DNA of 64,000 nt from a bacterium (GTDB lineage: Bacteria > Eisenbacteria > RBG-16-71-46). The position numbers were made by a program, and so were the translations under genes. The notes beneath the pieces were generated by a model, which saw only the letters and a list, made by a program, of their open reading frames with translations, made no database searches and had not been told where the DNA came from. The stretch lies in NCBI GenBank assembly GCA_043779265.1, contig JAYWEM010000084.1, positions 3,768 to 67,767 of the forward strand, read 5' to 3'. Each line of letters begins with the position of its first letter. Within the stretch, counting starts at the first letter, position 1. Positions 1 through 16,174 of this stretch are shown here, in pieces.

Positions 1-1642
1 CGAGGGGCGTGCACCCGACGCGCGCTCCAAGGAGGACGATGCCGCCGAGGCGGCGATGAGCGTGGAGCAGAAGCTCCACTTCCAGATCCTGCACCGCAAA
101 CCCGCCGGCATCGAGGCGCTGGTCGATGAGGCGGTCAAGCGGCAGGACCCGGTCGTCGTGCTCAATACCGTTCTGCTGCCGGCGATGAAGGAAGTCGGCG
201 ACAAGTTCGGCTCCGGCGAGTTGATCCTGCCGTTCGTGCTGCAGAGCGCCGAGGTGATGAAGAAGGCGGTGGCTCAACTCGAGCGCTATCTGGAGAAGAG
301 CGGCGATGTGACCAAGGGCCGCGTGGTGCTCGCCACGGTGTTCGGCGACGTGCACGACATCGGCAAGAACCTGGTCAAGACGATCCTGAGCAACAACGGT
401 TACACCGTCTACGATCTGGGCAAGCAGGTGCCGGTGCAGCGCATCCTCGAGAAGGCGCAGGAGGTCGGGGCCACCGCCATCGGCCTGTCGGCGTTGCTCG
501 TCTCGACGAGCAAGCAGATGCCGATCTGCGTCGGCGAGCTGCATCGCCTGAGTCTCGAGTACCCGCTGCTGATCGGCGGCGCGGCGATCAACCGCAACTT
601 CGGGCGGCGTGCCGCGCTGATCGGCGGCGAGGTTCTGTACGCGCCTGGCGTCTACTACTGCAAGGACGCGTTCGAGGGCCTCGATGTCATGAACGCGCTG
701 ACCGACCCAGTGGAGGCTCCCAAGCTGATCGAGCGTTCCAAGCGCGAGGCGTTCGAGTTCAAGACCAAGTCCGCCGAGTTGGAGCAGCGCGCCGCCGCAT
801 CGAGCGCGCAGCAGAAGGACTTCAAGGTCACGGTCTCGCGCGATGTCACCATCCCGGCGCCGCCGTTCTGGGGCCCGCGCGTCACCACCAGCAAGCAGGT
901 CCCGTTCGCCGGCATGTACGAGGGGATGGACCTGAAGACCCTGTACCGGCTCCACTGGGGCGCTCGTGGCACGGGAGCGCCGTACGATGCGCTCATCGCC
1001 AGCGACTTCGAGCCGCGACGCCTCAAGCTCCAGCACGAGGCCGAGCACAAGGGCTGGCTGCGGCCGATCGCCTCGTACGGCTACTTCCCGTGCCAGAGCG
1101 AGGGCCAGGATCTCGTCGTCTATGACGCGACTGCGTTCCACCCTGGCTCGCTCACACCGCGCGGCAAGATCGAGGAAGTGGCGCGATTCACGTTCCCGCG
1201 TCAGGAGGACCGAGAGGGGCTTTGCCTTTCGGACTACTTCCTGCCGGCGGATGGCTCCAAGTTCGATGTGATCGCGTTCCAGATCGTCACCGTCGGCAGC
1301 GGTGCAGATGAACTGTGCGCTGCGCTCAACGCGCGTGGCGAGTACGCCGACGCGCTGTTCATCCACGGGCTCGCGATGGCCGCCACCGAAGGCCTCGCCG
1401 AGTGGCACCACCGCCACATGCGCGCCGAGCTCGGATTGGGCGCCGACCGCGGCAAGCGCTACTCGTTCGGCTACAGCGCCTGCCCCGATCTGGCCGACCA
1501 GGCCAAGCTGTTCCAGCTGCTGCAGCCCGACACCTCGATCGGCGTGACGCTGACGAGCGCCTTCCAGCTGGTGCCGGAGGCCTCGACGAGCGCGTTGGTC
1601 GTGCACCACCCCGAAGCGCTCTACTACATGGTGCGCGAGTAG
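1..1642 (+). CDS. metH: methionine synthase MetH, C-terminal part (B12-binding and AdoMet-reactivation domains). The 5' end lies beyond the window start; the reading frame is open from position 2.
   Basis: DxHxxG-type cobalamin-binding motif (GDVHDIGKNLV) followed by a Rossmann-like B12 domain and a C-terminal activation domain ending VHHPEALYYMVRE. The frame stays open to the left window edge. Confidence 0.85.
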   Translation, partial: EGRAPDARSKEDDAAEAAMSVEQKLHFQILHRKPAGIEALVDEAVKRQDPVVVLNTVLLPAMKEVGDKFGSGELILPFVLQSAEVMKKAVAQLERYLEKSGDVTKGRVVLATVFGDVHDIGKNLVKTILSNNGYTVYDLGKQVPVQRILEKAQEVGATAIGLSALLVSTSKQMPICVGELHRLSLEYPLLIGGAAINRNFGRRAALIGGEVLYAPGVYYCKDAFEGLDVMNALTDPVEAPKLIERSKREAFEFKTKSAELEQRAAASSAQQKDFKVTVSRDVTIPAPPFWGPRVTTSKQVPFAGMYEGMDLKTLYRLHWGARGTGAPYDALIASDFEPRRLKLQHEAEHKGWLRPIASYGYFPCQSEGQDLVVYDATAFHPGSLTPRGKIEEVARFTFPRQEDREGLCLSDYFLPADGSKFDVIAFQIVTVGSGADELCAALNARGEYADALFIHGLAMAATEGLAEWHHRHMRAELGLGADRGKRYSFGYSACPDLADQAKLFQLLQPDTSIGVTLTSAFQLVPEASTSALVVHHPEALYYMVRE

Positions 1643-2274: not shown

Positions 2275-5200
2275 TCAGCGACCGGTGGCCACGAACGCGG
2301 CCCAGTAGAACGGATGCGTGCTGCGCTTGGCGTCGCGCCGCGCCGCGAGCACACGCGAGTGCGCGCGGCGGATCGCAGCCGCCGCCTCGGTGACGCCGGC
2401 AGCACGCGCGTCGTAGAGCTCGCGCATCCACTCCCGCGTGGCCGCATCCTCGACGGCCCACAGGCTGGCGATCACCGTGCGCGCACCGCTGAGCTGGAAT
2501 GCGCGCCGCATTCCCAGCGAGCCCTGATGCGGCCATTGCGACGCCATGCCGGCGTGGCACGCGGAGAGCACCACCCAGTCGACGGCGCGCAGGTCGAGCA
2601 GCGAGACCTCCTCGGCCGTGAGCCAGCCATCGGAGTCAGCGACCCCGCGGTCTTCGGCGCCAGCCTCACCGGTGAGCGCCAACAGCACACGACGCCCCAG
2701 CCAAGGCAGCTCGGCCGGCTCCGGCCGCGTCGGCTTTGCCAAGACACCCGGATGCCGCCGTGCTGTCGCGGAGGCCTCGACGCGCGACACGCCTCCCACG
2801 CCGCGCATCCCCACCGAGGGCGTGCGGCAGGTGTCCTCGAGTACGACGCCATGGGTCGCCAGGTGCAGGATCGTGCTGCGGGGCGCCTCGCGACGGAACG
2901 CCATCTCCGAGGCCTGAGCGCCCACCAGTGCCACCGCGTGGCCGCCCCGTTGTGTCCAGGCGAGCGCCAAGTCGGCGACTTCGAGGCGGGCGGACGGCAG
3001 TGACTCGAGCCGAGCACGCGTCACGGGCGTGCAATCGGACGAGCCATCACGCAGGGCCAAGAGCTCCCCGGTTCGCGAGGCGCGAGCGCCTCTCTCGCCG
3101 AACTCGGGATCTCCCAGTGCCAGGAGCTGGCCATCGGATCGAGTCGCTGCCGTGCGCAGACGCTCGCGTTCGGACGAGAGCACGCGAAGGGCCGGTCCGG
3201 ACTCGACGAGGAAGCGCCCCGCGTCGGTGGGAAGAGCGCCCCAGGGCAGGTCCAACACCAGTCCGTCCTCGACGACGTCGATGTGAGTCGTCGGCCCCAG
3301 GGCCGCGACCACCGGGTCCCAGAGCCGCTCGCGCACCGCCATCCCCGCAGCGCGACACGCTCGCTCTGCGCGGGTCCGCCCCTGCGCCGACTGCGCCGGG
3401 CTCGCCTCGAGTTGGTCCCGCCATGCATCGACCAGCGCGCGCAGTTCGGCCGTCGGTCCGAGGTCGATGCAGCGGGGCGTGCGGTCCTCTCCCGTGGCCA
3501 GCAATGCGAGCAGACGCTCGCGGCCTCGCCCGATACTCACGTCCGCGAACGAGACGATGGCTTCATCGGAGGCAAGCGTTCCGAGCACACCCTGCAGGCT
3601 GGCGGCGGTCTCCGGAGCGCTCGCGCGTTCACCGGCGAGCCGGACGTAGCGGCGTTCCTCCTCCTCGGCCGTGACGCGAGCTGCATCGGCGCGCTCGCGC
3701 CAGGCGGCGCCATGCTCGGCGGCGCCCGGGGCCACGATGAGGCGAGCGAGCCGACGTTGCGCCGCTGCCCAGGAGCGATGGGCGTCACGCAGTGCCGGGT
3801 CATCGTCTGTGGGGGTTCGCAGTCGCGCGATCTCGTCCTGGACGGCGCCGCGCCACCCGACGAGCCGGTCCCATGCCGTCGCCAGACGGCCACTCGGTGC
3901 GTCGGCGGCGAGCCAGAGCAGGACATCGAGCGAGCTCGACAGCTGATGCGCGAGCTCGAGTGCGCGGGACTCGGGCATGCCGCGAGCGTCGGAGAGCGCC
4001 TTGATGAGCGCCAGCGAGTCGGTCGTGAACGCGTGCGCCCAAGCGTCCTCCACGAGTCCGACGCGAGCCTCGGCTCGGGCACGCGCCAACTGGACGGACG
4101 AGAACACGTTGTTGCGGCGCAATCCGGTCGAGTCCGCGATGCGCTCGAATGCCATCCCCAGCTCCCGGACTTTCACGGCCTGTCCCGTGACCTCCGACAG
4201 TTCGAAGAGCCCCCGCACGAGCTCCGCCCGGATCGTGCCGCGTTCATCTTGAGTATGCGAGGCGCGTTCGAGAGCGAGCTCGAGATCCGTGCGCGCCGCA
4301 TCAGGCTGCGCCCTTCCGGCGCGGATACCGGCGTGCACATGTCGGATGAACAGCAGGTTCGAGTCGTGGCGAATCGAATCGGCCATCGCGAGCCGGCGCG
4401 CCTCCTCGAGGAGCAGGAGCGCACCCGTTGTGTCCCCGATCATGCTGCGTGCCTCGGCGCGGTAGATCGTGTTGTTGACGGCGAGGAAGTGGTCCGGTCC
4501 GAGATTCCGGCTCAGCAATGCGACGGCACGCGCGAACTCGCGTTCGGCCGCACGCCAGTCGCTGACGAGCGCCAGCCGCAAGCCGAGCAGTGCGTGCAGC
4601 CGCCCGACGGCGAGCGTCGAGTCGCCCTCGGCGCGCCGAGTCAGCTCGAGCGCGCGTTGAGCGAAATCGACGGATTCACTCAGGTCCCCGAGGTTGCGCG
4701 CCAGGATCGAGAGGCTGCGGTAGAGAGGACCCAGAGTCCGCGCATGCGCGATCGGATCGCCCTCGAGGATCTGCCGCGCCTCGTGAAGTGCGGCCAGCGC
4801 GCTGTCGTAATCGGCCGCGGCTGTTGCGGCCACACCCAGGTCGGTGAGCATCTCGCCGACGCGCTGCAGGTTCCCGGGACGCGTCCGGTCGAGCATGCTG
4901 GCACCGGCTCGCATGCCATGCATCGCGGGCGACCACTGACGAAGCATCGCCTGTGCGCGACCCCGCAGGAAGGCGCACTCGCCGCGCAGCGAGTCGTCGT
5001 GGATCGCACGCGGCTCGAGCCCGGCGAGCATGAGGAGCGCGCTGTCGGGCTGTCCCCATCCGATTCGCAGGGCGGCGCCGATCAGACGCATGCGGGCAGC
5101 GGTGCTGGCCTGCCCAGGCAGGCGATCATGGAGTTCCGCTGCGATTCGCACGCTCGCGATCGCTGCATCGCGGCGCGGTGTGCGCCCCGTCCACGCGATT

Positions 5201-5451
5201 TCGGCACGTTCCCTGTGCACTCTGGCCAGCAGCGCGGTGTCGCGGCTGGCCAGCGATGCGAGGTGCGCGAGCAGGTCGCGCGCAAGGCTGTCCGCGAGCA
5301 CGAGCTGACGAGCCTCTCGCGCTGCACGGATCTGGCCGAGATCCGGGTCAGCTGCACTCCCACGCGGCGCGAGTAGAAGAAGCCCCATCACGGCCATCAA
5401 AGCGAATCGGACACACGTGGTGCGGCGGTGTGTGCTCCCCGCCCGGGTCAT
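2275..5451 (-). CDS. secreted TPR-repeat protein with a C-terminal CHAT (caspase-like) domain
   Basis: The ORF is open up to 6384, but I place the start at the ATG at 5449-5451, which overlaps the kinase stop (ATGA). That start gives an N-terminal signal peptide (MTRAGSTHRRTTCVRFALMAVMGLLLLAPRGSAADP). The middle is a long helical, TPR-like region. The C-terminus has the CHAT signature (His/Cys dyad context VLSACHAG, ending PFYWAAFVATGR). Confidence 0.75.
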   Translation of the reverse strand: MTRAGSTHRRTTCVRFALMAVMGLLLLAPRGSAADPDLGQIRAAREARQLVLADSLARDLLAHLASLASRDTALLARVHRERAEIAWTGRTPRRDAAIASVRIAAELHDRLPGQASTAARMRLIGAALRIGWGQPDSALLMLAGLEPRAIHDDSLRGECAFLRGRAQAMLRQWSPAMHGMRAGASMLDRTRPGNLQRVGEMLTDLGVAATAAADYDSALAALHEARQILEGDPIAHARTLGPLYRSLSILARNLGDLSESVDFAQRALELTRRAEGDSTLAVGRLHALLGLRLALVSDWRAAEREFARAVALLSRNLGPDHFLAVNNTIYRAEARSMIGDTTGALLLLEEARRLAMADSIRHDSNLLFIRHVHAGIRAGRAQPDAARTDLELALERASHTQDERGTIRAELVRGLFELSEVTGQAVKVRELGMAFERIADSTGLRRNNVFSSVQLARARAEARVGLVEDAWAHAFTTDSLALIKALSDARGMPESRALELAHQLSSSLDVLLWLAADAPSGRLATAWDRLVGWRGAVQDEIARLRTPTDDDPALRDAHRSWAAAQRRLARLIVAPGAAEHGAAWRERADAARVTAEEEERRYVRLAGERASAPETAASLQGVLGTLASDEAIVSFADVSIGRGRERLLALLATGEDRTPRCIDLGPTAELRALVDAWRDQLEASPAQSAQGRTRAERACRAAGMAVRERLWDPVVAALGPTTHIDVVEDGLVLDLPWGALPTDAGRFLVESGPALRVLSSERERLRTAATRSDGQLLALGDPEFGERGARASRTGELLALRDGSSDCTPVTRARLESLPSARLEVADLALAWTQRGGHAVALVGAQASEMAFRREAPRSTILHLATHGVVLEDTCRTPSVGMRGVGGVSRVEASATARRHPGVLAKPTRPEPAELPWLGRRVLLALTGEAGAEDRGVADSDGWLTAEEVSLLDLRAVDWVVLSACHAGMASQWPHQGSLGMRRAFQLSGARTVIASLWAVEDAATREWMRELYDARAAGVTEAAAAIRRAHSRVLAARRDAKRSTHPFYWAAFVATGR

Positions 5452-7175
5452 CGCACTGGATTCTCCAAGGTCACCTGTCGCACCCACACGCCGCGGACAT
5501 CGCGTTCGCGGCCGGCGAGCGAGTGGAAGCGGTCGAACGTCCCGGCGCGCTGCGGTGCGGCATCGGAGGGCACGGCGCTCACGCCGCCGACTCCACGCAG
5601 ACGCTCGACCGACGCGGCCGGGATCATGGCGTAGCGAGGCGCGCGGCCGGGCGTGGGCGCGGGCAGGCGCGCCAGCTCGGCCTCCAGCTCCGAGACGGGT
5701 TCGAGGCTGGCGATCACCAGGAAGTGCTCGCGTCCGCCGCGGCTCGTGACGGTCCAGGCACTCACGTCGCCGCCCATGGTGCCGGGGAGCAGGAGCGTGG
5801 TGTCGGCGGGCAGCGGATTCTGCAGCTCGAAGAGCGGCTGCGGGAAGAGCAGATAGGACTCGCCCCGCTCGTCTTCGTTGAGCAAGTAGACATGCGCCGG
5901 ACGAGTGGCGCGGAACTCGAGCGCCAGCTGGTCGCCGGGTCCGACACGATCTCCCGTCGAGAGGCGCGCGCGCTGGCCGTCGTTGCGGCGGACGATCGAG
6001 GCTTCGAGGTCGAACGTCGGCAGGGCAGTGGACACCGAGGTGGCCGCGGGAATCGGCGCCGGGGCCTTGGCGGGCTGTCGCAGCACGAGCCAGCCCGCGA
6101 ACACCATGGCGGCTGCGGCCGCGACGGTGAGCAGCATGCGCACTGGCGAAGGCTCGACGCGAGGTGGCACGAGCGCCATCTCGAGCGCGGTGCCCATCTC
6201 CTCGGCGTTGGCGAAGCGCGCCTCGGGCGAAGCGGCCATCGCGCACTCGATCGTGGCGATGAGCCCGGCGGGGAGGTCGGGGCGTTCCTCGTGCAGCGAG
6301 CGCTTGGCGCCCGCGCTCGATTGCTCGCGCAGTTCTCCCATCGTCCGCGCGGTGAACGGCGGCCTGCCGGTGAGCGCGCACCACAAAGTGACGCCGAGCG
6401 CGTACAGGTCGGAGCGCGTCGTGGCCGATTCGCCCGAGAGCCGCTCCGGTGCCATGAACATGGGTGTGCCCGAGATGCGGAGCGGGTCATCGTCCTGGAG
6501 TGCGCGTCGCTGCCCGAGTCCGAAATCGGTGAGCACGACACGATGCTCCTCGGTGAGCACGACGTTCGCGGGCTTGATGTCGCGGTGCAGCAGGCCGCCG
6601 GCGTGCACGGCCGTGAGTGCGCGCGAGATCGCGACGCCGATGCGCACGACCTCGGCGGCGGGGAGCGGTCCCATGCGCTCGATCCGCTGCGCCAGATCCT
6701 CGCCACGGAGGAACTCCATCCACAGGCCGATCTGGCCCGCCTCCTCGCCGATTCCGTACACGCTCACCACCTCGGGGTGCCGGAGCCGAGCGAGCGCGCG
6801 AGCCTCCTCGAGGAGGGGATGGTCATTCCCCGCGAGTCCGGGGCGCATCAGCTTGAGCGCCACCTCGCGCTCGAGCGTGGGATCCCACGCTCGATACACC
6901 TCGCCGCTCGCGCCCGCGCCGACCTGTTCGAGCAGGAGCAGCGAACCCCAGCGTCGAGTCCCGGCTGCGGCCGCCGCCAAGGGCGACTTCGAGCCCGATG
7001 GGCTCCGTTGCAGCGCGCGATTGAACTCGACGATGCGGGCCACGTCACGAAGCGCATCGATCTGCGAGCGCTCGAGTGTGCTGCCCGGACGTTCGCTCTC
7101 GGCCTGCCAATCGACCGCGAGGCCCTCGGACACCGAGCTGAGAAGCGTGTCGAGCGGATCGTCAGGTGCGCTCAT
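5448..7175 (-). CDS. membrane Ser/Thr protein kinase with a C-terminal extracytoplasmic domain
   Basis: Hanks-type kinase motifs: glycine loop GAGASGEVY, VALK, HRDIKPANVVL and DFG. A transmembrane helix (LLTVAAAAAMVFAGWLVL) is followed by an extracytoplasmic domain of roughly 200 aa. The start overlaps the 3' end of the upstream sigma gene by 14 bp. Confidence 0.85.
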   Translation of the reverse strand: MSAPDDPLDTLLSSVSEGLAVDWQAESERPGSTLERSQIDALRDVARIVEFNRALQRSPSGSKSPLAAAAAGTRRWGSLLLLEQVGAGASGEVYRAWDPTLEREVALKLMRPGLAGNDHPLLEEARALARLRHPEVVSVYGIGEEAGQIGLWMEFLRGEDLAQRIERMGPLPAAEVVRIGVAISRALTAVHAGGLLHRDIKPANVVLTEEHRVVLTDFGLGQRRALQDDDPLRISGTPMFMAPERLSGESATTRSDLYALGVTLWCALTGRPPFTARTMGELREQSSAGAKRSLHEERPDLPAGLIATIECAMAASPEARFANAEEMGTALEMALVPPRVEPSPVRMLLTVAAAAAMVFAGWLVLRQPAKAPAPIPAATSVSTALPTFDLEASIVRRNDGQRARLSTGDRVGPGDQLALEFRATRPAHVYLLNEDERGESYLLFPQPLFELQNPLPADTTLLLPGTMGGDVSAWTVTSRGGREHFLVIASLEPVSELEAELARLPAPTPGRAPRYAMIPAASVERLRGVGGVSAVPSDAAPQRAGTFDRFHSLAGRERDVRGVWVRQVTLENPVR

Positions 7176-7797
7176 GTCCCATCTCCTCGGCGAGGCGCCG
7201 GAGCGCTCGCTTCACGGCCATCCGTACCGCGTCCCGGCTCGACCGCTCGGTCATGGCGGCGATCTCACCGTGGTCGTAGTCCAACTCGATGTGCAGGTGC
7301 AGCAGTTCGCGGTCTTCGGCGCTGAGTGTCTGCATCGCGCGCTCGTAGCGATCGACCACGTCGGACCCGATGGCGTCCTCGAGCGGGGACGGGGAGGGGT
7401 CGTGCAGATCCTCGGGAAGGCCGTCGGGCCCGGGCCGCCGATTCGCGTAGCGCACCTGGTCGCGGATCCGATTGAGCACCGCCTGGCGCACATAGGCCTG
7501 GAACCCGCCCGGCCCGCGCACCTCGATGCGATCGAGTCCCTGCACCGTCCGCATCAGGGTCTCCTGCACGAGGTCGTGTGTGTCGAGCAGTGAGCGGGCG
7601 CGCGACGGCAGCCGCCCGCTCGCCCAGCGCTGGAGGCGGGGGAGGTAGCGTGCCATGAGCGACTCGAGCGCCCGCGCATCGCCGGACTTGGCGCGCTGGA
7701 GCAGGTCGGTCGTGATGAGCAGGTCGTCCTCGGGTGAGCCCGAGGAGGGATCAGCGGGCAACAGGGCACCTCGAAGTGAGTCGGGTTCGAATCCCAC
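7162..7797 (-). CDS. ECF-type RNA polymerase sigma factor
   Basis: Sigma-70 region 2 (DLVQETLMRTVQGLDRI ... YVRQAVLNRIRD) and a region-4 HTH. It is the first gene of the sigma / kinase / CHAT operon. Confidence 0.8.
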   Translation of the reverse strand: MGFEPDSLRGALLPADPSSGSPEDDLLITTDLLQRAKSGDARALESLMARYLPRLQRWASGRLPSRARSLLDTHDLVQETLMRTVQGLDRIEVRGPGGFQAYVRQAVLNRIRDQVRYANRRPGPDGLPEDLHDPSPSPLEDAIGSDVVDRYERAMQTLSAEDRELLHLHIELDYDHGEIAAMTERSSRDAVRMAVKRALRRLAEEMGHERT

Positions 7798-7888
7798 TTC
7801 TGAGCATACCCGTCCGCTCGACCGCGCGTCGTGGGGGGTGTGTCGTCGAGTCGCATACCCTACTTACGCCCGAGGCCGGGCAGGCGAA

Positions 7889-7912
7889 CAGCCTCCCGCT
7901 TGCGGGAGGCCC
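7889..7912 (-). terminator. GC hairpin downstream of the alpha/beta-hydrolase gene and upstream of the ECF sigma promoter region
   Basis: cctcccgc-ttg-cgggagg inverted repeat between the two minus-strand genes. No T tract. Confidence 0.3.
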
Positions 7913-7932
7913 ACCGGGCGGCCCCATCGGAA

Positions 7933-8932: not shown

Positions 8933-11671
8933 TCAAGCGTCGCGCGGGTCGATCACGTCCGTCTCGATCCCGTACTCGCGGATCGCCTTGGCCACGACCG
9001 CCGCCTTCACCTTGCCGTCCTGCTGCAGCGCATGCAGCGTCGCGACGACCATGTGCTCGGCGTCGATCTCGAAGTGACGGCGCAGCGCCTCGCGCGTGTC
9101 GCTGCGACCGAACCCATCGGTGCCGAGCGCGACGAAACGATTGGGGATCCAGCGCGCCGGCATGTCGTTGACGGACTTCATCCAATCACTGGTCACGATG
9201 ACCGGACCCTCGGCCCCCTCGAGCGCCTGCGTCACGTAGGGCACGCGCGGCTTCTCGGTCGGGTGCAGACGATTCCAGCGCTCCGCACTCAGCGCATCGG
9301 TTCGCAGCAGTGAGTGGCTCGTGACGCTCCACACATCGGCCGCGACGCCCCACTTCTCGCCGAGCATCTCCTGCGCCCGCAGCGCCTGCAGCAGGATCGG
9401 GCCGCTGCCCCAGAGCTGCGCCTTGAGCGCGTGCTTGCCCTCGGCCACGCGGTAGCGATAGAGCCCCTTCAGGATGCCCGCTTCGACACCCTCCGGGCGC
9501 TTGGGCTGCGCGTAGTCCTGATTGTAGAGCGCCAAGTAGTAGAAGATGTCCTCGTTGTCGACGTACATGCGACGAAGACCATCCTGCACGATCGTCGCGA
9601 GCTCGAAGGCGAATGCCGGATCGTACGAGACGCAGTTCGGCACGGCCGAGGAGAGCAGCAGGCTGTGGCCATCCTCGTGCTGCAGGCCCTCGCCATTGAG
9701 CGTCGTGCGACCGGCAGTGGCGCCCAACAGGAAGCCGCGACCGCGCGCATCGCCGAACGCCCAGATCAGATCCATGGTCCGCTGGAAGCCGAACATCGAG
9801 TAGAAGATGTAGAACGGGATCGTCGTCTGGCCGTGGGTCGAGTAGCTCGTGCCCGCGGCGGTGAACGACGCCATCGAGCCCGACTCGGTGATGCCCTCTT
9901 CGAGCAACTGACCGTCGGCCTTCTCGGTGTAGGACAGCACCACCTTGGAGTCGACCGGCTCGTAGCGCTGGCCGAATGGAGCGTAGATCCCGATCTCGCG
10001 GAACAGCACTTCCAGGCCGAACGTGCGTGCCTCGTCGGGGATGATCGGCACGACGCGCTTGCCGTAATCGGCGTCTCGCAGCAGGTTGCGGAGCAGCTTG
10101 CCGAACACCATCGTGGTCGAGACCAACTGCTTCTCGCTGGTGCCGCCGTCGAACTCGGTGAACAGCTTGGCGGGCGCCTCGGGCATGGACTTCGTGCGCA
10201 CCACGCGCTTGGGGATGCTGCCGCCGAGTGCCTTGCGGCGCTCGAGCAGGTAGCGCACCTCGGGGCTGTCCGCACCCGGATGGAAGAACGGCGCGTGGTC
10301 GAGGTCGCGATCGGCGATCGGCAGCTCCAGGCGATCGCGGAACGTGCGCAGTTCCTCGAGGTCCAGCTTCTTCTTCTGGTGCGTCATGTTGCGCGCCTCG
10401 GAGGCGGAGCCGAGCGTCCAGCCCTTGACGGTCTTGGCGAGCACCACCGAGGGGCGGCCCTGTGTCGCAGTGGCCGCCGCGTAGGCGGCGTACACCTTGC
10501 GGTAGTCGTGGCCGCCGCGGCGCAGGTGCTTGATCTGATCGTCGCTCATCGACTCGACCATCTTGACGAGGCTCGGGTCGCGGCCGAACAGGTGCTCTCG
10601 GATGTAGGCGCCGGACTCGACGACGTACTTCTGCCACTCGCCATCGACGGTCTCGTTCATCGCGTCCACCAGGGCGCCGTCGTAGTCGCGCGCCAGCAGT
10701 GTGTCCCACTCGCGCGCCCACACGACCTTGATCACGTTCCAGCCGGCACCGGTGAACAGCGCCTCCATCTCCTGGATGATCTTGCCGTTGCCGCGCACCG
10801 GGCCGTCGAGTCGCTGCAGGTTGCAGTTGATGACGAACGTGAGGTTGTCGAGCCCCTCGCGCGCCGCGACCGTGAGTGCGCCCTGCGCCTCGACCTCGTC
10901 CATCTCGCCGTCGCCGAGGAAGGCCCACACGCGCGAACCCGAGGTGTCGGCGATGCCGCGAGCCGAGAGGTAGCGGTTGTAGCGCGCCTGATAGATGGCG
11001 TTGATGGGGCCGAGTCCCATCGAGACGGTGGGGAACTCCCAGAAGTCCGGCATCAGGCGCGGGTGCGGATAGCTCGAGAGCCCGACCCCGCGCGATTCGC
11101 GGCGGAAGTTGTCGAGTTGCGCCTCGGTCAGGCGCCCCTCGAGGAACGCGCGTGAATAGATGCCGGGGGCGGCATGGCCCTGGAAGAAGATCTGGTCGCC
11201 CGAGCTGCCATCGTCCTTGCCACGGAAGAAGTGGTTGAAGCCCACCTCATAGAGGCTGGCAGCCGACGCATAGGTGGAGAGGTGTCCGCCGAGCCCCGCG
11301 TCGCGATGATTGGCACGGATCACCATGACCGCCGCGTTCCAGCGGATGATGCGGCGGATGCGGAGCTCCATCGCCTCGTCGCCCGGGAACTCCGGCTCCT
11401 GCTCGGGCGAGATGGTGTTGATGTAGCGCGACTGCACCAGCCCCGGCAGCCCGACCTGCAACTGACGGGCGCGCTTGAGCACGCGGCGCAGCAGCCAGTC
11501 GGCGCGCTCGGGTCCCTGCGACTCGACCACGCCGTCCAGCGCGTCCAGCCACTCCTGCGTTTCGGTCTCATCGCCGTCCGGGAGGTGACGCTTGAACCCC
11601 GCGAGCAGGTTCAGGTGATAGCGCTCGGTCTCTCGCCGATCGCTCATGGGAGGCGGGTCCTTGAGGCTCAT
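8933..11671 (-). CDS. aceE: pyruvate dehydrogenase E1 component (homodimeric type)
   Basis: Strong E1 signature (HLSTYASAASLYEVGFNHFF ... GHAAPGIYSRAFLEGRL). I place the start at MSLKDPPPMSDRRETERYH, preceded by AAGGA. The longer ORF running to 12133 is low-complexity and not E1-like. Confidence 0.85.
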   Translation of the reverse strand: MSLKDPPPMSDRRETERYHLNLLAGFKRHLPDGDETETQEWLDALDGVVESQGPERADWLLRRVLKRARQLQVGLPGLVQSRYINTISPEQEPEFPGDEAMELRIRRIIRWNAAVMVIRANHRDAGLGGHLSTYASAASLYEVGFNHFFRGKDDGSSGDQIFFQGHAAPGIYSRAFLEGRLTEAQLDNFRRESRGVGLSSYPHPRLMPDFWEFPTVSMGLGPINAIYQARYNRYLSARGIADTSGSRVWAFLGDGEMDEVEAQGALTVAAREGLDNLTFVINCNLQRLDGPVRGNGKIIQEMEALFTGAGWNVIKVVWAREWDTLLARDYDGALVDAMNETVDGEWQKYVVESGAYIREHLFGRDPSLVKMVESMSDDQIKHLRRGGHDYRKVYAAYAAATATQGRPSVVLAKTVKGWTLGSASEARNMTHQKKKLDLEELRTFRDRLELPIADRDLDHAPFFHPGADSPEVRYLLERRKALGGSIPKRVVRTKSMPEAPAKLFTEFDGGTSEKQLVSTTMVFGKLLRNLLRDADYGKRVVPIIPDEARTFGLEVLFREIGIYAPFGQRYEPVDSKVVLSYTEKADGQLLEEGITESGSMASFTAAGTSYSTHGQTTIPFYIFYSMFGFQRTMDLIWAFGDARGRGFLLGATAGRTTLNGEGLQHEDGHSLLLSSAVPNCVSYDPAFAFELATIVQDGLRRMYVDNEDIFYYLALYNQDYAQPKRPEGVEAGILKGLYRYRVAEGKHALKAQLWGSGPILLQALRAQEMLGEKWGVAADVWSVTSHSLLRTDALSAERWNRLHPTEKPRVPYVTQALEGAEGPVIVTSDWMKSVNDMPARWIPNRFVALGTDGFGRSDTREALRRHFEIDAEHMVVATLHALQQDGKVKAAVVAKAIREYGIETDVIDPRDA

Positions 11672-11860
11672 TTCGTGGGTGTCCTTTCGAAACGGCCGAA
11701 GTCGCGGCCGGAGCTGCGGGCGAAGCCGCCGCGGGAGGTCGCGCGGCTTGTGCCCGGGCGGGTGCAAGCGGGCCTGATGGCGGTTCCCTGATCGTCCGGC
11801 AGGATAGCGCCCGCGCGAGAGCGGGGCCAAACGCCCGGGGCCCCTTCTGGCCGCATCCGT

Positions 11861-12032
11861 CGCGATTGCTTTGACCTGCGCGTCTCGTCGTGGTGGCCTG
11901 TCGTCTCCGTCGACCCCCTTGCTGCTCCCCGGAGGCCCCGATGCCCGTCTCTTCGCCCGCACACACCGTCGTCCACCCGGCCCGCAAGGGTCCTCGCCCG
12001 ATGGCCGCTGGGCGCTCGTGGCGGTTGGTGAG
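11861..12032 (+). repeat. degenerate direct-repeat copy of the S9 peptidase promoter and 5' coding end (compare 14098-14310)
   Basis: The core is about 87% identical to the start of the peptidase gene (ATGCCCGTCTC(T/A)TCGCCCGCACACACCGTC...CGCAAGGG) and carries a 54-bp internal deletion. It encodes the remnant MPVSSPAHTVVHPARKGPRPMAAGRSWRLVSSR*. Confidence 0.7.
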
Positions 12033-12138
12033 CTCGCGATGAACGGCGAAGAGCGCACTGGGCGCGGGCTCGGCCGGATCCGACACTGGCTCCTCGCTCT
12101 CCGGCGAGCTGGTCGGCCGATCGCGCTGCTCATCCTCG

Positions 12139-14058
12139 GTGTGTTCGGCGCTCAGTTCGCTCAGGCGCAGTCCGTGGCTCCTTTCGAACGAGTGTGGGGG
12201 GGGCGATACGGGCCTGCGCGTGTTCAGCGCGTACTCCGTGGCGAGCCATGGGATCGTGGGCGACGGACAGGGCGGAGCCTATGTGGCCGCGAGCCTCTAT
12301 GAGCCCAGCCTCGCGGATTCGCCCTTCGTCACGCGGATCCTTCGCGTCGATGCCCAGGGAAACCCGCATAGCGGTTGGCCTGCGGGAGGACTCGTGCTCC
12401 ACCGGAACGAGTCGTACGCCCCCTGGTTCGACCAACTGATCATCAGGCGCTCCCAGAATGGGAGCCTCTCCGTGAACGGCACGAAGCGCAGACACGGACA
12501 AGATCGGCTGGAGGCGATGGTGGTGGAGGATCCGGCGCCTCGAGTTGCCTGGGCGTCGTTCGATCGGAGACCCACTCAGCGGTTCGATCGCAGATTCGTA
12601 CCCACGCCGAGTGGCGATTGGTGGTCGCTCACCTTCGAATTCGACTCGCTCACCGTGCGACTGCGCAGGCCCAACGGCTCACCCGCACCGGGCTGGCCTG
12701 CGAGTGGTGTCTGCATCGACCGCGCCAGCCCCTCCGGAGTCACTCGCGAAGTCACCAGTCATTGGGAACCGCGAGTACTTCCCGACGGACGGATCGGGAT
12801 CCTCTATGAGAGCCTGGAGTATCCGCCCGGCCCGAGCGTGAGAAAGCTCCATTTGGTGAGGATCAGCCCATCCGGCGCAGCTATCGAACGCGATTCGTTG
12901 CCTCTCACGCCTTGGTTGGGCCGGCTCCGATCATGGACCACCGACGAGGTCGGGAGACCACTGCTCACATGGTCCGATATGAACAATCTGCAGGCTACCG
13001 GTCTCCAATGGGACGGTGCACGGCGTTGGTCCGATGCGCTGTACCCCGACTCGAGCTTCAACCTCTCGCTCGAGGCCTTCGCTGCTCCTGACGGAAACGG
13101 CGGGGCCTACATCGCTCACACCACCGAGGCTCCCTCGGAGTGGCTGTCGCAACTCCGATTGCTCCATCGGCAGGACGACGGCACGCTCGCTGTGGGCATC
13201 TATGCGCTCACTCCGATTCCCGGGACCACTCCCTTCGTAAGCAGTGCCTTCCGAGTCTGGGGGGACGCGCTGGGCCGCGCGGTGCTTTGTCTGCATTGCG
13301 ATGGAGAGAGCTCATTCGGGGCGCGCGGGGCGCCCCGGTTGCTGATCGTGGATTCGGACGGTCAGTTCGCCGGCTCCGATCCGGAGGGCACCAAGGTGTT
13401 CCCTGTGGGCTTCTACAGCTCGTTCCGTCTTGAGTCCGATTCCAATGGGGATGTGTTCGCGTCCTGCCTCGAGTTGGATGCAAGTGGCACGGCGAGGCAT
13501 GTGATCGCGCAGCGCATGCACGCCGACCAACCGGTGGCGACGCTCGCCTCGCGCGTCTCGGGCGGGCGCGTTCGTGGCGGGGTTGAGCTGACGTGGCAAC
13601 TGAGCGGCGACGCCGCGACCGTGGCGCTCGTCGAGCGCAGCGTGGGCGACATGCCGTACGAGGCGTTCGCGTCACTGGCGCCGGATGGCGACGGGCGTGT
13701 ACGCGTGCTCGACCTCGCTGCGCCGAGCGAGGCCCGCTTGCGCTACCGACTGTCGGTCGCGGGGCTGGTGCTCGACATCTGGGAGCTGACAGCGCACAGC
13801 CCGCCGGGGTTGTCGTTGGCACTCGGGCGCACCACTGACGGCGAGGTGGCCGCGCGGATCACGCTCGAGGGCGTTGGCGATGCCCGGCTCGACGTGTTCG
13901 ACGTGGCGGGACGACTCCAGCGCAGCGAGGACCTGAGCGACCGAGGCGCCGGCACACATGAGTTGGCGCTCCCCGGAGCCGGCCCGCCCGGGCTGCGGCT
14001 CGTGCGGCTGCGAGAGGGCGGAGCGCAGCGGGTCGTGCGGTACGCGAGCCTGCGCTGA
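12139..14058 (+). CDS. secreted protein with a T9SS / FlgD-Ig-like C-terminal domain; the N-terminal signal peptide is in another frame (apparent +1 frameshift at a G8 tract)
   Basis: The body ORF (frame 1) ends with LDVFDVAGRLQR...GAGTHELALPGAGPPGLRLVRLREGG..VVRYASL, typical of T9SS/FlgD-like C-terminal domains. A signal peptide ORF in frame 0 (ATG 12039; MNGEERTGRGLGRIRHWLLALRRAGRPIALLILGVFGAQFAQAQS) runs into the G8 run at 12196-12203. Removing one G fuses the two frames. Confidence 0.6.
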   Translation: MCSALSSLRRSPWLLSNECGGGDTGLRVFSAYSVASHGIVGDGQGGAYVAASLYEPSLADSPFVTRILRVDAQGNPHSGWPAGGLVLHRNESYAPWFDQLIIRRSQNGSLSVNGTKRRHGQDRLEAMVVEDPAPRVAWASFDRRPTQRFDRRFVPTPSGDWWSLTFEFDSLTVRLRRPNGSPAPGWPASGVCIDRASPSGVTREVTSHWEPRVLPDGRIGILYESLEYPPGPSVRKLHLVRISPSGAAIERDSLPLTPWLGRLRSWTTDEVGRPLLTWSDMNNLQATGLQWDGARRWSDALYPDSSFNLSLEAFAAPDGNGGAYIAHTTEAPSEWLSQLRLLHRQDDGTLAVGIYALTPIPGTTPFVSSAFRVWGDALGRAVLCLHCDGESSFGARGAPRLLIVDSDGQFAGSDPEGTKVFPVGFYSSFRLESDSNGDVFASCLELDASGTARHVIAQRMHADQPVATLASRVSGGRVRGGVELTWQLSGDAATVALVERSVGDMPYEAFASLAPDGDGRVRVLDLAAPSEARLRYRLSVAGLVLDIWELTAHSPPGLSLALGRTTDGEVAARITLEGVGDARLDVFDVAGRLQRSEDLSDRGAGTHELALPGAGPPGLRLVRLREGGAQRVVRYASLR

Positions 14059-14167
14059 ACGGTCGGCGTGGCGTTCCCCCGCACCCGTCACGAAGCGGTT
14101 GACCGCGGCGCCTGCGCATGGTGGCCTCCGGTGCCACTTCGCGCTCTACAAGCTCCCGGAGGCTCTA

Positions 14168-16174
14168 ATGCCCGTCTCATCGCCCGCACACACCGTCATC
14201 CACCCGGCTCGCAAGGGCCCCCGCCCCATGACCGCCGAGGATCTCTGGGACCTGCCGCGCGTCGGCTCGCCGCAGCCCTCGCCCGATGGTCGCTGGGCGC
14301 TCGTTCCGGTGGCGCACACCGACCTCGAGAAGAACGAGTCGCGCAACACGCTGTTCCTGGTCACGCTCGATGGCACCGCGGAGCCTCGCGCGCTCACCTC
14401 GCCCGAGCTGTCGGCCTCGGGCCCTCGCTGGGCTCCCGATGGGCGCCGCTTCACATTCCTCCGTAAGGACGCCGACTCGCGGATGCAGTTGCATCTGCTG
14501 TCGCTCGATGGCGGCGAGCCGCGCGTCCTGACGACGCTGCCACTCGGCGTCTCCGATGCGCTGTGGCTGCCGGACGGCAAGGGGCTGATCCTCGCGGCGC
14601 AGTTGATCAAGGGGCACCTGACGCCCGAGGCGACGCTCGCCGAGCGCGACCGCCGCGCCAAGGACCCGGTCAAGGCGCACGTCACCGAGGACCGCTTCTA
14701 TCGCTACTGGGACACGTGGATCGACACGGGCGAGGTGATGCATCTGTTCCACCTCGAGCTTGCGAGTGGTGCGGTGCGCGACCTGATCCCGGACTCGGAG
14801 CTGTGGTTCGAGTGGATGGACCCGACGGGGCAGTTCGACATCAGCCCCGATGGCGCCGAGGTGGCGTTCACGGGCACGTGGTTCGATGACGCGCGCTCGC
14901 TCATCGTCACTTCCGTGTTCACCGTGCCGATCACCGGCGGCACGCCGGCACGGCTCGTCCCGCCGCACACCGCCGACGACTTCCGCCCGCGCTATTCTCC
15001 GGACGGCACTCAGATCGTCTACGGACGCACGCTCGACCCGCTGTTCTACGCCGACCCGCCGCAGCTCATGCGCTACGAGCGTGCGAGCCGCCAGCACTTC
15101 ATGATCGTGACCGATTGGGACTTCTCGCCGACCGGTTGGGAGTTCAGCGACGACGGCTCGCTGGTGTTCGTGGCCGAGCAGCATGCGCGCGTGAAGTTGT
15201 TCGCCTGGAACGGCAAGGGCGAGCCGCAGGTGGTGGTCGGCGAGGGTGCGGTCAGCGGGATGTCGCCGGTCCGAGGCGGTCGGCTCGTCTACGCGCATCA
15301 GACGAACGCCTCGCCCACCGAGATCGAGGTGTGCGCCAAGGACGGCTCGAAGCGCCAGCGCATCACCCACTTCACCGACGCGGTCGTCGCGCGCTACGGG
15401 ACCGGCGAGGTGCGCGAGATGCTGTTCGAGGGCGCCGACGGCGAGACCGTTCAGATGCTCGTCGTGCTTCCTCCGGGCGCGGACGGCAGCCAGCCGCTGC
15501 CGCTGGTGCACATGATCCACGGCGGCCCGCACGGCATCTTCGGCGACCAGTGGCATGCGAGATGGAACCCGCATCTGTTCGCGGCGCCCGGTTACGTGGC
15601 GGCGATGGTCAACTTCCAGGGCTCGACGTCGTGGGGGAAGGACTTCGCCAAGCGCATCCAGGGCGAGTGGGCGAGGCGGCCGCACGAGGATGTGATGAAC
15701 GCGACCGACGTGCTGATCGCCGCGGGTATCGCCGATCCCGAGCGCATGGCAGCCACCGGTGGCAGCTACGGTGGCTACATGGCGACCTGGATCGCCGGCC
15801 ACACGGACCGCTTCAAGTGCATCATCTGCCACGCGGGCGTGAACGACCTGACCGGCCAGTACGCGAGCGACGTCACACAGGGGCGTGGCCAAGCGGCGGG
15901 CGGCGAGGCGTGGGACGGTCTCGAAGCGCAGGATCGCTGGTCGCCGATCCGCTATGCGAGCGCCATGAACACGCCGATGCTGGTGATCCACGGCGAGCGC
16001 GACTACCGCGTGCCGGTGGGGCAGGGACTGCTGCTCTACGGGATGCTCAAGGCCAAGGGCGTGCCCGCGAGGCTCGTGTACTTCCCGGACGAGAACCACT
16101 GGATCCTCAAGCCGAAGAACTCGCTCCTGTGGTGCGGCGAAGTGCAGAGCTGGTTGGGTCGCTGGCTCGGCTGA
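14168..16174 (+). CDS. S9 family serine peptidase (prolyl oligopeptidase / acylaminoacyl-peptidase-like) with an N-terminal beta-propeller
   Basis: Catalytic GGSYGGYM nucleophile motif and C-terminal Asp and His regions (IHGERDYRVP, ENHW). An alternative start is MTAEDL at 14228. The ORF-track start at 13958 overlaps the upstream gene and is rejected. Confidence 0.85.
   Translation: MPVSSPAHTVIHPARKGPRPMTAEDLWDLPRVGSPQPSPDGRWALVPVAHTDLEKNESRNTLFLVTLDGTAEPRALTSPELSASGPRWAPDGRRFTFLRKDADSRMQLHLLSLDGGEPRVLTTLPLGVSDALWLPDGKGLILAAQLIKGHLTPEATLAERDRRAKDPVKAHVTEDRFYRYWDTWIDTGEVMHLFHLELASGAVRDLIPDSELWFEWMDPTGQFDISPDGAEVAFTGTWFDDARSLIVTSVFTVPITGGTPARLVPPHTADDFRPRYSPDGTQIVYGRTLDPLFYADPPQLMRYERASRQHFMIVTDWDFSPTGWEFSDDGSLVFVAEQHARVKLFAWNGKGEPQVVVGEGAVSGMSPVRGGRLVYAHQTNASPTEIEVCAKDGSKRQRITHFTDAVVARYGTGEVREMLFEGADGETVQMLVVLPPGADGSQPLPLVHMIHGGPHGIFGDQWHARWNPHLFAAPGYVAAMVNFQGSTSWGKDFAKRIQGEWARRPHEDVMNATDVLIAAGIADPERMAATGGSYGGYMATWIAGHTDRFKCIICHAGVNDLTGQYASDVTQGRGQAAGGEAWDGLEAQDRWSPIRYASAMNTPMLVIHGERDYRVPVGQGLLLYGMLKAKGVPARLVYFPDENHWILKPKNSLLWCGEVQSWLGRWLG

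Follow-up and report, generated by a model that had tools for sequence, protein, structure and literature searches.

What part might a caspase-like protease with a predicted export signal play in an operon that otherwise encodes a sigma factor and a membrane-bound kinase? The question is raised by three overlapping genes in a 64,000-nt stretch of DNA (hereafter the window; contig JAYWEM010000084.1 of assembly GCA_043779265.1) from a bacterium of the Eisenbacteria. In order of transcription, they encode a sigma factor of the extracytoplasmic function (ECF) type (7162..7797; 211 aa from GTG 7797, with Pfam and NCBIfam matches), a membrane Hanks-type Ser/Thr kinase (5448..7175; 575 aa, ATG at 7175) and a predicted exported protein in which tetratricopeptide repeats (TPR) precede a CHAT domain (2275..5451; 1058 aa from ATG 5451). 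All three genes, and all features of this module given below, lie on the minus strand, in a region of approximately 70% G+C. We find that the outer domain of the kinase and the TPR-CHAT protein share a short, co-varying motif, RGVGG, and we propose that the three genes form an envelope signalling module, in which the ECF sigma factor is served by its cognate membrane kinase and the exported TPR-CHAT protease is the periplasmic partner of the kinase's DUF4384-type ectodomain, cleaving the loop that carries the motif. We put the probability of this reading at about one half.

A motif shared by the kinase and the protease

The kinase motif, L526-R-G-V-G-G-V-S533 (5577..5600), stands C-terminal to the DUF4384 domain, where a helix ends and a disordered loop begins. 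The CHAT motif, M882-R-G-V-G-G-V-S889 (2785..2808), lies within a disordered, subfamily-specific insert (aa 873-910; 2722..2835) that starts directly after the catalytic His (HLATHGVVLEDTCRTPSVGMRGVGGVS), placing the motif Arg approximately 16 residues past that His. The same heptapeptide, RGVGGVS, is therefore present in the CHAT insert and in the kinase ectodomain (chance of a shared 7-mer in this pair, p ~0.014), and both copies start predicted disordered loops in otherwise confident models. Among 121 ectodomain sequences the R and the second G of the kinase motif are invariant, and the core LRG(V/I)G is near-universal both in 92 loci and in 136 cluster representatives. Every CHAT protein encoded beside a DUF4384-type kinase has the insert with R-(G/S/A)-(V/I)-G-G; in 29 unrelated TPR-CHAT proteins, most of which have no insert, we detected no matching motif other than one weak regular-expression match (P0145). 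Likewise, the RGVGG motif was not found in sigma-linked kinases with other ectodomains.

The motif varies in step between the two partners. The kinase and CHAT versions read LRGVGEIG and MRGVGEIG, respectively, at locus L047, RGIGGLS in both proteins at L095, and RSVGGL and RSIGGL at L010, and the two proteins share GGVEP at L054 and GGVA at L034. The same pattern separates clades, with GGV in both proteins of Eisenbacteria-like loci versus GGL in both proteins of Acidobacteria-like loci. In a permutation test that shuffled partners among pairs, which are not phylogenetically independent, 99 of 152 positions were identical against 79.4 expected (p ~1e-5), and within the Eisenbacteria-like clade the co-variation gives p = 0.002. 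Read from the sequences, this co-variation and the neighbourhood of the two genes in four arrangements and in divergent lineages support a functional link between the kinase ectodomain and the TPR-CHAT protein.

Conservation of the gene neighbourhood

For the neighbourhood comparison, 27 genome loci were found with exact sigma peptide patterns and 80 metagenome loci by alignment of the DUF4384-type ectodomain, and all loci were scanned with hidden Markov models (HMMs); CHAT linkage was counted only in loci found via sigma or kinase queries, and not via CHAT queries. A Hanks kinase is adjacent to the sigma homolog in approximately 24 of the 25 genome loci with room for one, and across the 27 genome loci the ectodomains of sigma-linked kinases vary, being DUF4384-type, TPR or other. 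The sigma gene adjoins a DUF4384-type kinase gene in 70 of 71 loci with room, a degree of conservation that makes the kinase the partner of this sigma family and fits an earlier sequence-only reading of this DNA, in which a kinase was suggested to control the sigma factor in place of an anti-sigma factor. A CHAT gene is present in 8 of the 9 loci that extend for 4 kb or more to either side, and in all 3 of the further long-contig loci (11/12). Its placement takes four forms: on the same strand it lies either downstream (as in the window) or upstream, and otherwise it is either upstream and divergent or downstream and convergent. The triad persists to approximately 30% CHAT identity (L037). Among the loci examined, a CHAT gene was never found beside sigma-kinase pairs with other ectodomains.

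Exceptions nonetheless exist. At L028, where the flanks measure 10 kb and 8 kb, a DUF4384-type kinase is present but no CHAT gene, and L049 is also without one. At L031/L032 (sigma 10001-10612, kinase 10609-12390, metH convergent) the aceE ... metH synteny is that of the window, and the sigma-kinase pair retains an LRGVGGVA motif while the CHAT gene is absent, making this a natural CHAT-less variant. The sequence-only reading had supposed an obligatory pairing with a secreted TPR-CHAT protein, and this cannot be upheld given L028, L031/L032 and the pairs with other ectodomains. Co-occurrence of the three genes, whose conservation that reading proposed to survey, holds firmly for sigma factor and kinase, and for the CHAT gene only alongside DUF4384-type kinases: the CHAT linkage to this kinase type is strong and specific, but not obligatory.

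Two loci carry additional genes or remnants. In L034, a second ECF sigma-kinase pair (10546-13621, minus strand), whose kinase has a TPR ectodomain, lies approximately 2 kb past the CHAT gene on the opposite strand, and such genomes therefore carry several paralogous sigma-kinase modules; a search for a second paralog in the 64-kb window found none. In L036, the syntenic aceE/hydrolase ... metH site holds a long open reading frame (ORF; 9605-14458, plus strand) with a degenerate CHAT fragment and then a complete TPR-CHAT protein. The degenerate fragment reads HIATRG, with the catalytic His replaced, and is still followed by TRGVGGVE. There is no sigma or kinase gene at L036, and its assembly is apparently frameshift-rich, with metH fragmented.

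Acidobacteria-type loci have a Peptidase_C11 gene of the clostripain family in the space that separates the CHAT gene from the divergent sigma gene (minus-strand genes at L010 8517-9812, L107 6146-7960, L118 6907-8151, L119 6568-7761 and L120 6799-7971). This cluster is found in 21 metagenomic/genomic loci and 3 long contigs, and a CHAT gene follows in all 8 of the divergent loci in which at least 2.8 kb past the C11 gene is available. The order C11-CHAT-sigma-kinase occurs on one strand in L082, and in L078 only the TPR region lies within the available sequence. L118-L120 also possess a small ORF (107-196 aa, no Pfam match) between CHAT and sigma, and in L107 the C11 ORF ends in a FADFGR hexapeptide repeated approximately 8 times (~6146-6400, minus strand), where the opposite strand reads repeated PKSANR. 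The C11 protein may represent a second clan-CD protease in the module; its family members here have no obvious signal peptide, and a search for C11 or caspase homologs in the 64-kb window found none.

Architecture of the three proteins

Profile searches place every domain proposed for this operon (CHAT, TPR, Pkinase and ECF) above its threshold, and the anatomy described in the sequence-only reading is recovered throughout: a cytoplasmic Hanks domain, one transmembrane helix and an outer domain of approximately 200 aa in the kinase, and a predicted signal peptide, a long TPR region and a C-terminal CHAT domain in its partner of approximately 1,050 aa. The overlaps between the genes are also as claimed when read from the ORF coordinates, with the sigma TGA (7164-7162) falling 14 nt within the kinase ORF, and the kinase TGA (5450-5448) and CHAT ATG (5451-5449) forming ATGA at 5451-5448. 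Moreover, no anti-sigma gene was found with Pfam or NCBIfam among the module genes and their flanking genes, the latter encoding only metH, GNAT, alpha/beta hydrolase and aceE products, in agreement with the earlier statement that no classical anti-sigma gene is present.

In the TPR-CHAT protein, the caspase-like domain (aa 702-1057; 2281..3348) scores 158 bits against the Pfam CHAT model (cutoff 24), and TPR_12 scores 39.7 (cutoff 30.1) in the helical-repeat region (~aa 36-610; 3622..5346), which is modelled as all-helical across aa 36-609. The catalytic residues H867 (nt 2851-2853, in HLATHG) and C965 (nt 2557-2559, in LSACHAG) are intact, and are invariant in 35 aligned CHAT sequences, so that both the HMM score and the conserved His-Cys dyad assign the protein to the CHAT class. 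AlphaFold2 predicts that a long helical-repeat solenoid leads into a caspase-like domain (pLDDT 85.5, pTM 0.84), with the insert at aa 873-910 disordered, and the best PDB matches of this model are DdvA (8rw5/8rot, E = 8e-13), Csx29 and human separase. The N-terminus (MTRAGSTHRRTTCVRFALMAVMGLLLLAPRGSA, followed by AD) resembles a signal peptide, as do most homolog N-termini when read from sequence, and the predicted signal peptide spans approximately aa 1-33 (5353..5451; LLLLAPRGSA before AD), where the model has a low-confidence helix. The protein is therefore probably exported. Two extra Cys residues that are invariant in the CHAT subfamily, C807 and C875, may form a disulfide, and together with the signal peptide they would fit an oxidising, extracytoplasmic location; the expectation that the CHAT protein should share a compartment with the outer domain of the kinase is supported. 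A word-indexed search with the CHAT protein gave 7 relatives at E <=1e-40, of which 6 show 41-54% identity and P0127 approximately 27-33%, the next relative being P0128 (26-32% identity, E = 2.5e-49). That so few relatives were recovered reflects a far more rapid divergence of the protease than of the sigma factor.

The catalytic domain of the kinase (aa 81-343; 6147..6935; Pkinase 144 bits at aa 82-282 in Pfam) has VALK (105-108), HRDIKPAN (197-204) and DFG (217-219) all intact, as expected of a Hanks kinase, and H(R/G)D.K..N and DFG are retained in representatives of the family. Alignment identifies a conserved region N-terminal to this domain (aa 14-56, SVSEGLAVDW ... ALRDVARIVEFNRALQ; 7008..7136) that has no Pfam match. 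It belongs to a stretch of approximately 60 aa, SxxDGxx(V/I)DW ... LRxxxxIAxFxRxLQ, that is common to all sigma-linked kinases whatever their ectodomain, the motif being present in 61 of 86 full-length representatives, and it may serve to dock the sigma factor.

A single hydrophobic transmembrane helix (aa 347-365; 6081..6137) leads to the extracytoplasmic domain (aa 366-575; 5451..6080), an immunoglobulin (Ig)-like beta-sandwich that includes DUF4384 (PF14326, aa 413-493; 5697..5939; 55.3 bits vs cutoff 27). Past the sandwich, the chain forms a helix and then a disordered loop, and closes with a further helix and a beta-hairpin at the C-terminus. In the AlphaFold2 model of the ectodomain (pLDDT 86.6), the first of these helices ends at the L-R of the motif and the disordered stretch comprises model residues 165-178 (kinase aa 530-543). 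The hairpin (GVWVRQVTLENP; 5457..5492), which is conserved as GVWVRQxTLENP and preceded by a helix, packs back onto the sandwich. The DUF4384-type ectodomain family is widespread, with approximately 850 clusters at 50% identity matching its profile at E <=1e-30.

The sigma factor matches Sigma70_r2 (33.6 bits, cutoff 24), Sigma70_r4_2 (25.7, cutoff 25.7) and Sigma70_ECF (28.9, cutoff 21.1) in Pfam, as well as TIGR02937 (64.5, cutoff 42.9). With sigma2 and sigma4 domains only, and with HMM scores above threshold, it is an ECF (group 4) sigma factor; as to the kinase-associated ECF groups other than ECF43, the only hint is a sub-threshold score against the Planctomycete-type TIGR02984 (67 bits, cutoff 184). 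Homologs are approximately 199 aa long versus 211 aa from GTG 7797. This length, and a conserved -10-like box directly before GTG 7797, make TTG 7761 (199 aa) the probable start. The family returned 3439 matches; the best 120 of these are all at least 67% identical and have source names that include Eisenbacteria, Binatia and Sulfotelmatobacter, and the closest genomes are metagenome-assembled genomes of Candidatus Eisenbacteria. Region 2.2 (DTHDLVQET, aa 72-80; 7558..7584) keeps an intact acidic DxxDxxQE (D72-T-H-D75-L-V-Q78-E79 in the window), in line with the consensus lDT.DlVQ.T of 73 family members. Within it, T73 (in DTxD) is conserved in 99% of the 73, and in the sigma2-sigma4 linker (PSPSPLE, aa 134-140; 7378..7398) position 137 is Ser or Thr in 100%. 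By analogy with T106 of EcfK for the linker (PMC13147305), T73 and S137 are candidate phosphosites.

A proposed mechanism and its alternatives

Under the mechanism that we propose, the protease would recognise the exposed LRGVGG(V/L) loop, which lies towards the ectodomain's C-terminus, and would probably cut after the invariant Arg (between R527 and G528). The cut would uncouple or destabilise the C-terminal beta-hairpin of the sandwich and thereby alter kinase activity, since a hairpin severed from the sandwich could change the conformation or oligomerisation of the ectodomain. The kinase would in turn control the sigma factor, perhaps through phosphorylation of T73 in sigma 2.2 or S137 in the linker and through docking by its N-terminal region. 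The internal RGVGG loop beside the catalytic His would be an autoprocessing site or a pseudosubstrate, keeping the protease latent until its TPR array binds a ligand. The most economical reading is that a single CHAT site recognises both copies of the RGVGG loop, that in cis and that in the kinase ectodomain, and a preference for Arg at P1 of the window CHAT would follow from the shared motif. We infer the export of the protease, cleavage after Arg, the direction of signalling and the phosphosites in this scheme, as well as the biological signal and the regulon that it would connect. The step from kinase to sigma factor is the least certain, because DxxDxxQE is intact and the charge-switch of the ECF43 group (see below) is not to be assumed.

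A broader version of the proposal describes a protease-gated receptor kinase, in which a latent exported TPR-CHAT protein cleaves the ectodomain at RGVGG and so brings about Ser/Thr phosphorylation and activation of the ECF sigma factor, as a three-tier cascade that would differ from anti-sigma proteolysis and occur widely among soil phyla (Eisenbacteria, Acidobacteriota and others). Taken as a whole, this version is tentative, and we consider it rather more likely to fail in some part than to hold in full.

Several observations weigh against cleavage of the kinase by its neighbour. The single-chain AlphaFold2 models leave both loops undocked. Arg at P1 is no general feature of CHAT enzymes, as Csx29 cuts Csx30 at Met427/Lys428 (bioRxiv 10.1101/2022.08.17.504292). 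The cut site would be distal, the motif lying approximately 160 residues from the membrane, and for this reason site-1/site-2 proteolysis in the style of DdvA (regulated intramembrane proteolysis) was set aside. As the sigma factor keeps DxxDxxQE, ECF43, the sole demonstrated kinase-to-sigma mechanism, is not directly transferable. L028 and L031/L032 keep the kinase motif without a CHAT gene in the flanks available, so that either the partner gene of such kinases lies at another site or their motif has some other function. Additionally, the co-variation falls short of significance when the Acidobacteria-like clade is taken by itself (p = 0.19), and the pairs in the permutation test share ancestry. 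Finally, the C11 peptidase of Acidobacteria-type loci could be the Arg-specific enzyme instead.

The main rival supposes docking without cleavage, the RGVGG loop being a peptide ligand for the TPR array or for another CHAT surface. CHAT would then bind its own loop when latent or the kinase loop when signalling, its true substrates would be other envelope or foreign proteins, and the kinase would simply report the protease's state. Short peptides are the typical ligands of TPR arrays, and a single motif co-varying in both proteins fits one shared binding site equally well; furthermore, the hairpin past the motif is an integral and highly conserved part of the ectodomain fold, which speaks against its removal. 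Cleavage is nonetheless favoured, because the motif opens with an invariant Arg, sits in flexible loops and, in the protease, neighbours the catalytic His at a distance of some 16 residues, features that are typical of cleavage or pseudosubstrate sites, and because the catalytic dyad is strictly conserved. We therefore regard docking alone as unlikely, at perhaps the level of an outside contender.

A second alternative concerns biological role, and is compatible with the proposed cleavage mechanism: the module may be an anti-phage or abortive-infection sensor, akin to DdvA/DdvS or Craspase, with the sigma factor turning on defence genes. The structurally closest solved proteins, DdvA and Csx29, do belong to defence systems that control ECF sigma factors (PMC11506125; bioRxiv 10.1101/2022.08.17.504292). 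However, PADLOC gave no match for the CHAT protein, the sigma factor or C11, and only generic kinase-domain models for the kinase, and with no specific match for any of the four, membership of a known defence system was rejected. The locus sits amid housekeeping genes (aceE, metH) whose synteny is conserved in several genomes, which speaks mildly against a mobile defence island, and there are no cas genes or genes of cyclic-oligonucleotide-based anti-phage signalling systems (CBASS) among the neighbours examined. A defence role is consequently somewhat less likely again than docking.

A third-party protease is less probable still. Here both RGVGG loops would be cut by another Arg-specific enzyme, such as the C11 peptidase, in a cascade like that from SAVED-CHAT to PCaspase. 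Clostripain cleaves after Arg, and Peptidase_C11 genes do lie between CHAT and sigma in the 21 loci and 3 long-contig loci described above. A precedent for such a cascade also exists (bioRxiv 10.1101/2023.06.23.546230). Against this, both motifs are kept in the 64-kb window and in Eisenbacteria-type loci, where there is no C11 homolog, and C11 proteins without an obvious signal peptide would not reach the ectodomain. That the CHAT gene is a mere syntenic neighbour acting independently of the sigma-kinase pair is already disfavoured, and very improbable: the CHAT-less loci L028 and L031/L032 and the CHAT protein without sigma factor or kinase at L036 would suit it, yet the linkage holds across four gene orders and orientations and down to approximately 30% CHAT identity, is confined to one ectodomain type, and is accompanied by a co-varying motif specific to the subfamily.

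Relationships to known systems

Kinase-associated ECF groups are documented (ECF43, 59-62, 217, 267 and 283; PMC7826278), and the ECF43 pairs EcfP/PknT of V. parahaemolyticus and EcfK/PknS of X. citri have been characterised (PMC8999054, PMC13147305). In ECF43, the acidic DAED/DxxD of sigma 2.2 is replaced by an uncharged QTTA-like motif with a phospho-Thr (PMC13147305, PMC8999054), and EcfK is phosphorylated at T51 and T106 (PMC13147305). The window sigma factor resembles this group in being co-encoded with a single-pass membrane Ser/Thr kinase of variable ectodomain and in the absence of an anti-sigma gene, and its T73 and S137 lie in the same two regions as T51 and T106 of EcfK (PMC13147305). 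However, membership of ECF43 was rejected, as sigma 2.2 retains the acidic DxxDxxQE rather than a QTTA-like motif, both here and in the consensus of the 73-sequence family; a charge-switch is therefore not implied. The window kinase differs further in carrying its family-specific N-terminal region. We know of no protease partner described for ECF43.

DdvA is a periplasmic TPR-CHAT protein fused to an anti-sigma domain, acts with the ECF sigma factor DdvS, and has been proposed to cleave its own juxtamembrane linker (PMC11506125). As the best structural match, it shares with the window protein a TPR-CHAT architecture of separase/craspase type with a His-Cys dyad, a predicted extracytoplasmic location and a coupling to an ECF sigma factor, and for both proteins the proposed target is an exposed segment outside the cytoplasm. 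Unlike DdvA, in which one polypeptide joins the TPR-CHAT part to an N-terminal zinc-binding anti-sigma domain and a transmembrane helix, the window CHAT protein is separate and predicted to be secreted: its N-terminus is signal-peptide-like and leads into TPR repeats, with no anti-sigma domain match, and it is the kinase that would act as transmembrane regulator of the sigma factor. DdvA moreover controls a CBASS/CRISPR island, whereas the window context consists of housekeeping genes.

In Craspase (type III-E; Cas7-11, Csx29, Csx30, Csx31 and RpoE), the TPR-CHAT protein Csx29 cuts the sigma-binding Csx30 in the linker before its C-terminal domain and so controls the ECF sigma factor RpoE, and in one group of Csx30 proteins that C-terminal domain is DUF4384 (bioRxiv 10.1101/2022.08.17.504292). 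A TPR-CHAT protein, a DUF4384-bearing regulator and an ECF sigma output are thus common to both systems. Craspase, in contrast, is cytoplasmic and RNA-guided, has a non-kinase regulator, and cuts between Met and Lys as opposed to the Arg-Gly site proposed here. The association with Cas7-11, Csx30/Csx31 and a CRISPR array that marks Craspase is not seen at the window locus, whose neighbours within approximately 6 kb (metH, GNAT, hydrolase, aceE) include no cas genes, the rest of the 64-kb window not having been screened for cas; the CHAT protein has no PADLOC match.

A cluster in H. ochraceum encodes SAVED-CHAT, a sigma factor, a Ser/Thr kinase and the C14 protease PCaspase, the hypothesis there being that a caspase-like protease activates the kinase (bioRxiv 10.1101/2023.06.23.546230). 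On its description, the cluster resembles the window in the joint presence of CHAT protease, sigma factor and Ser/Thr kinase genes; the pairing of CHAT and C11 in Acidobacteria-type loci likewise resembles its two-protease cascade. That cluster operates in the cytoplasm, relies on cA3 and SAVED for sensing and has links to CRISPR/CBASS, whereas the window has a TPR sensor region in place of SAVED, a signal peptide and a membrane kinase, and no caspase or C11 gene.

Separase cuts after Arg, also cleaves itself and is restrained through pseudosubstrate inhibition. It has a helical-repeat region and a CHAT-type caspase-like fold like those of the window protein, and the role proposed here for the internal RGVGG loop would parallel its pseudosubstrate. 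Separase is, however, a eukaryotic protein of the cytoplasm or nucleus, with unrelated substrates and regulation.

Searches of full-text literature, whose coverage is incomplete and leaves such absence unproven, turned up no account of an ECF sigma factor combined with a membrane kinase and a secreted TPR-CHAT protein, and none of the shared motif. The sequence-only view that this is not a characterised system is accurate to the extent that the triad itself appears undescribed, but it has to be qualified by the close relatives DdvA/DdvS (PMC11506125), Craspase (bioRxiv 10.1101/2022.08.17.504292) and the SAVED-CHAT cluster (bioRxiv 10.1101/2023.06.23.546230). Sigma/kinase pairs and CHAT proteases that control ECF sigma factors were known already; the novelty is the shared, co-varying RGVGG motif and the protease-receptor interface proposed from it.

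Upstream region and flanking genes

The intergenic region upstream of the sigma gene (7798..7932) contains a GC-rich hairpin and a -10-like TATGCT at approximately 7806-7811, directly upstream of GTG 7797. In an alignment of approximately 57 upstream regions, a TAT(G/C)(A/C)T box is kept upstream of sigma genes despite approximately 70% G+C, and in Acidobacteria-type loci it is often TATGATAGGCAC. The same alignment contains no conserved -35 element and no recognised ECF-type promoter, and a consensus scan of the window region for promoters and terminators found neither. An autoregulatory ECF promoter was rejected, as the aligned regions give only a sigma-70-like -10 box. To judge from its sequence, this box looks like a housekeeping-type -10 element, and it is weakly consistent with constitutive expression and post-translational control of the sigma factor. 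GGGTATGC is present twice in the intergenic region (~7805-7812 and 7853-7860). The hairpin (GCCTCCCGC-AA-GCGGGAGGC, 7891-7910) stands directly past the alpha/beta hydrolase gene, ahead of the sigma promoter region. No T-run accompanies it, and it could act either as a terminator or as a structural element.

The module is flanked by metH, a GNAT gene, the alpha/beta hydrolase gene and aceE (Pfam, NCBIfam). The ORF at 56-1642 (plus strand) covers only the B12-binding and activation domains of methionine synthase (metH positions 645-1182) and opens with an ATG at 56, after an in-frame stop; either metH is split, or the window edge cuts it off from an N-terminal half in another frame. In the longest aceE ORF (8933-12133, minus strand, 1066 aa), approximately 180 residues precede the part that matches TIGR00759, and the true start is probably further downstream.

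Implications

To our knowledge, the control of kinase-associated ECF sigma factors is not understood apart from ECF43, almost nothing is known of what the ectodomains of their kinases sense, and exported TPR-CHAT proteins, although abundant in bacteria, are essentially uncharacterised. The operon described here provides, in one place, a protease, a receptor and a candidate site of recognition that co-varies (kinase R527, protease R883). If our reading is true, caspase-like proteolysis would feed Hanks-kinase signalling in the bacterial envelope, and the pairing of CHAT proteases with ECF sigma factors, as in Craspase, DdvA and SAVED-CHAT, would extend past phage-defence islands to chromosomal signalling.

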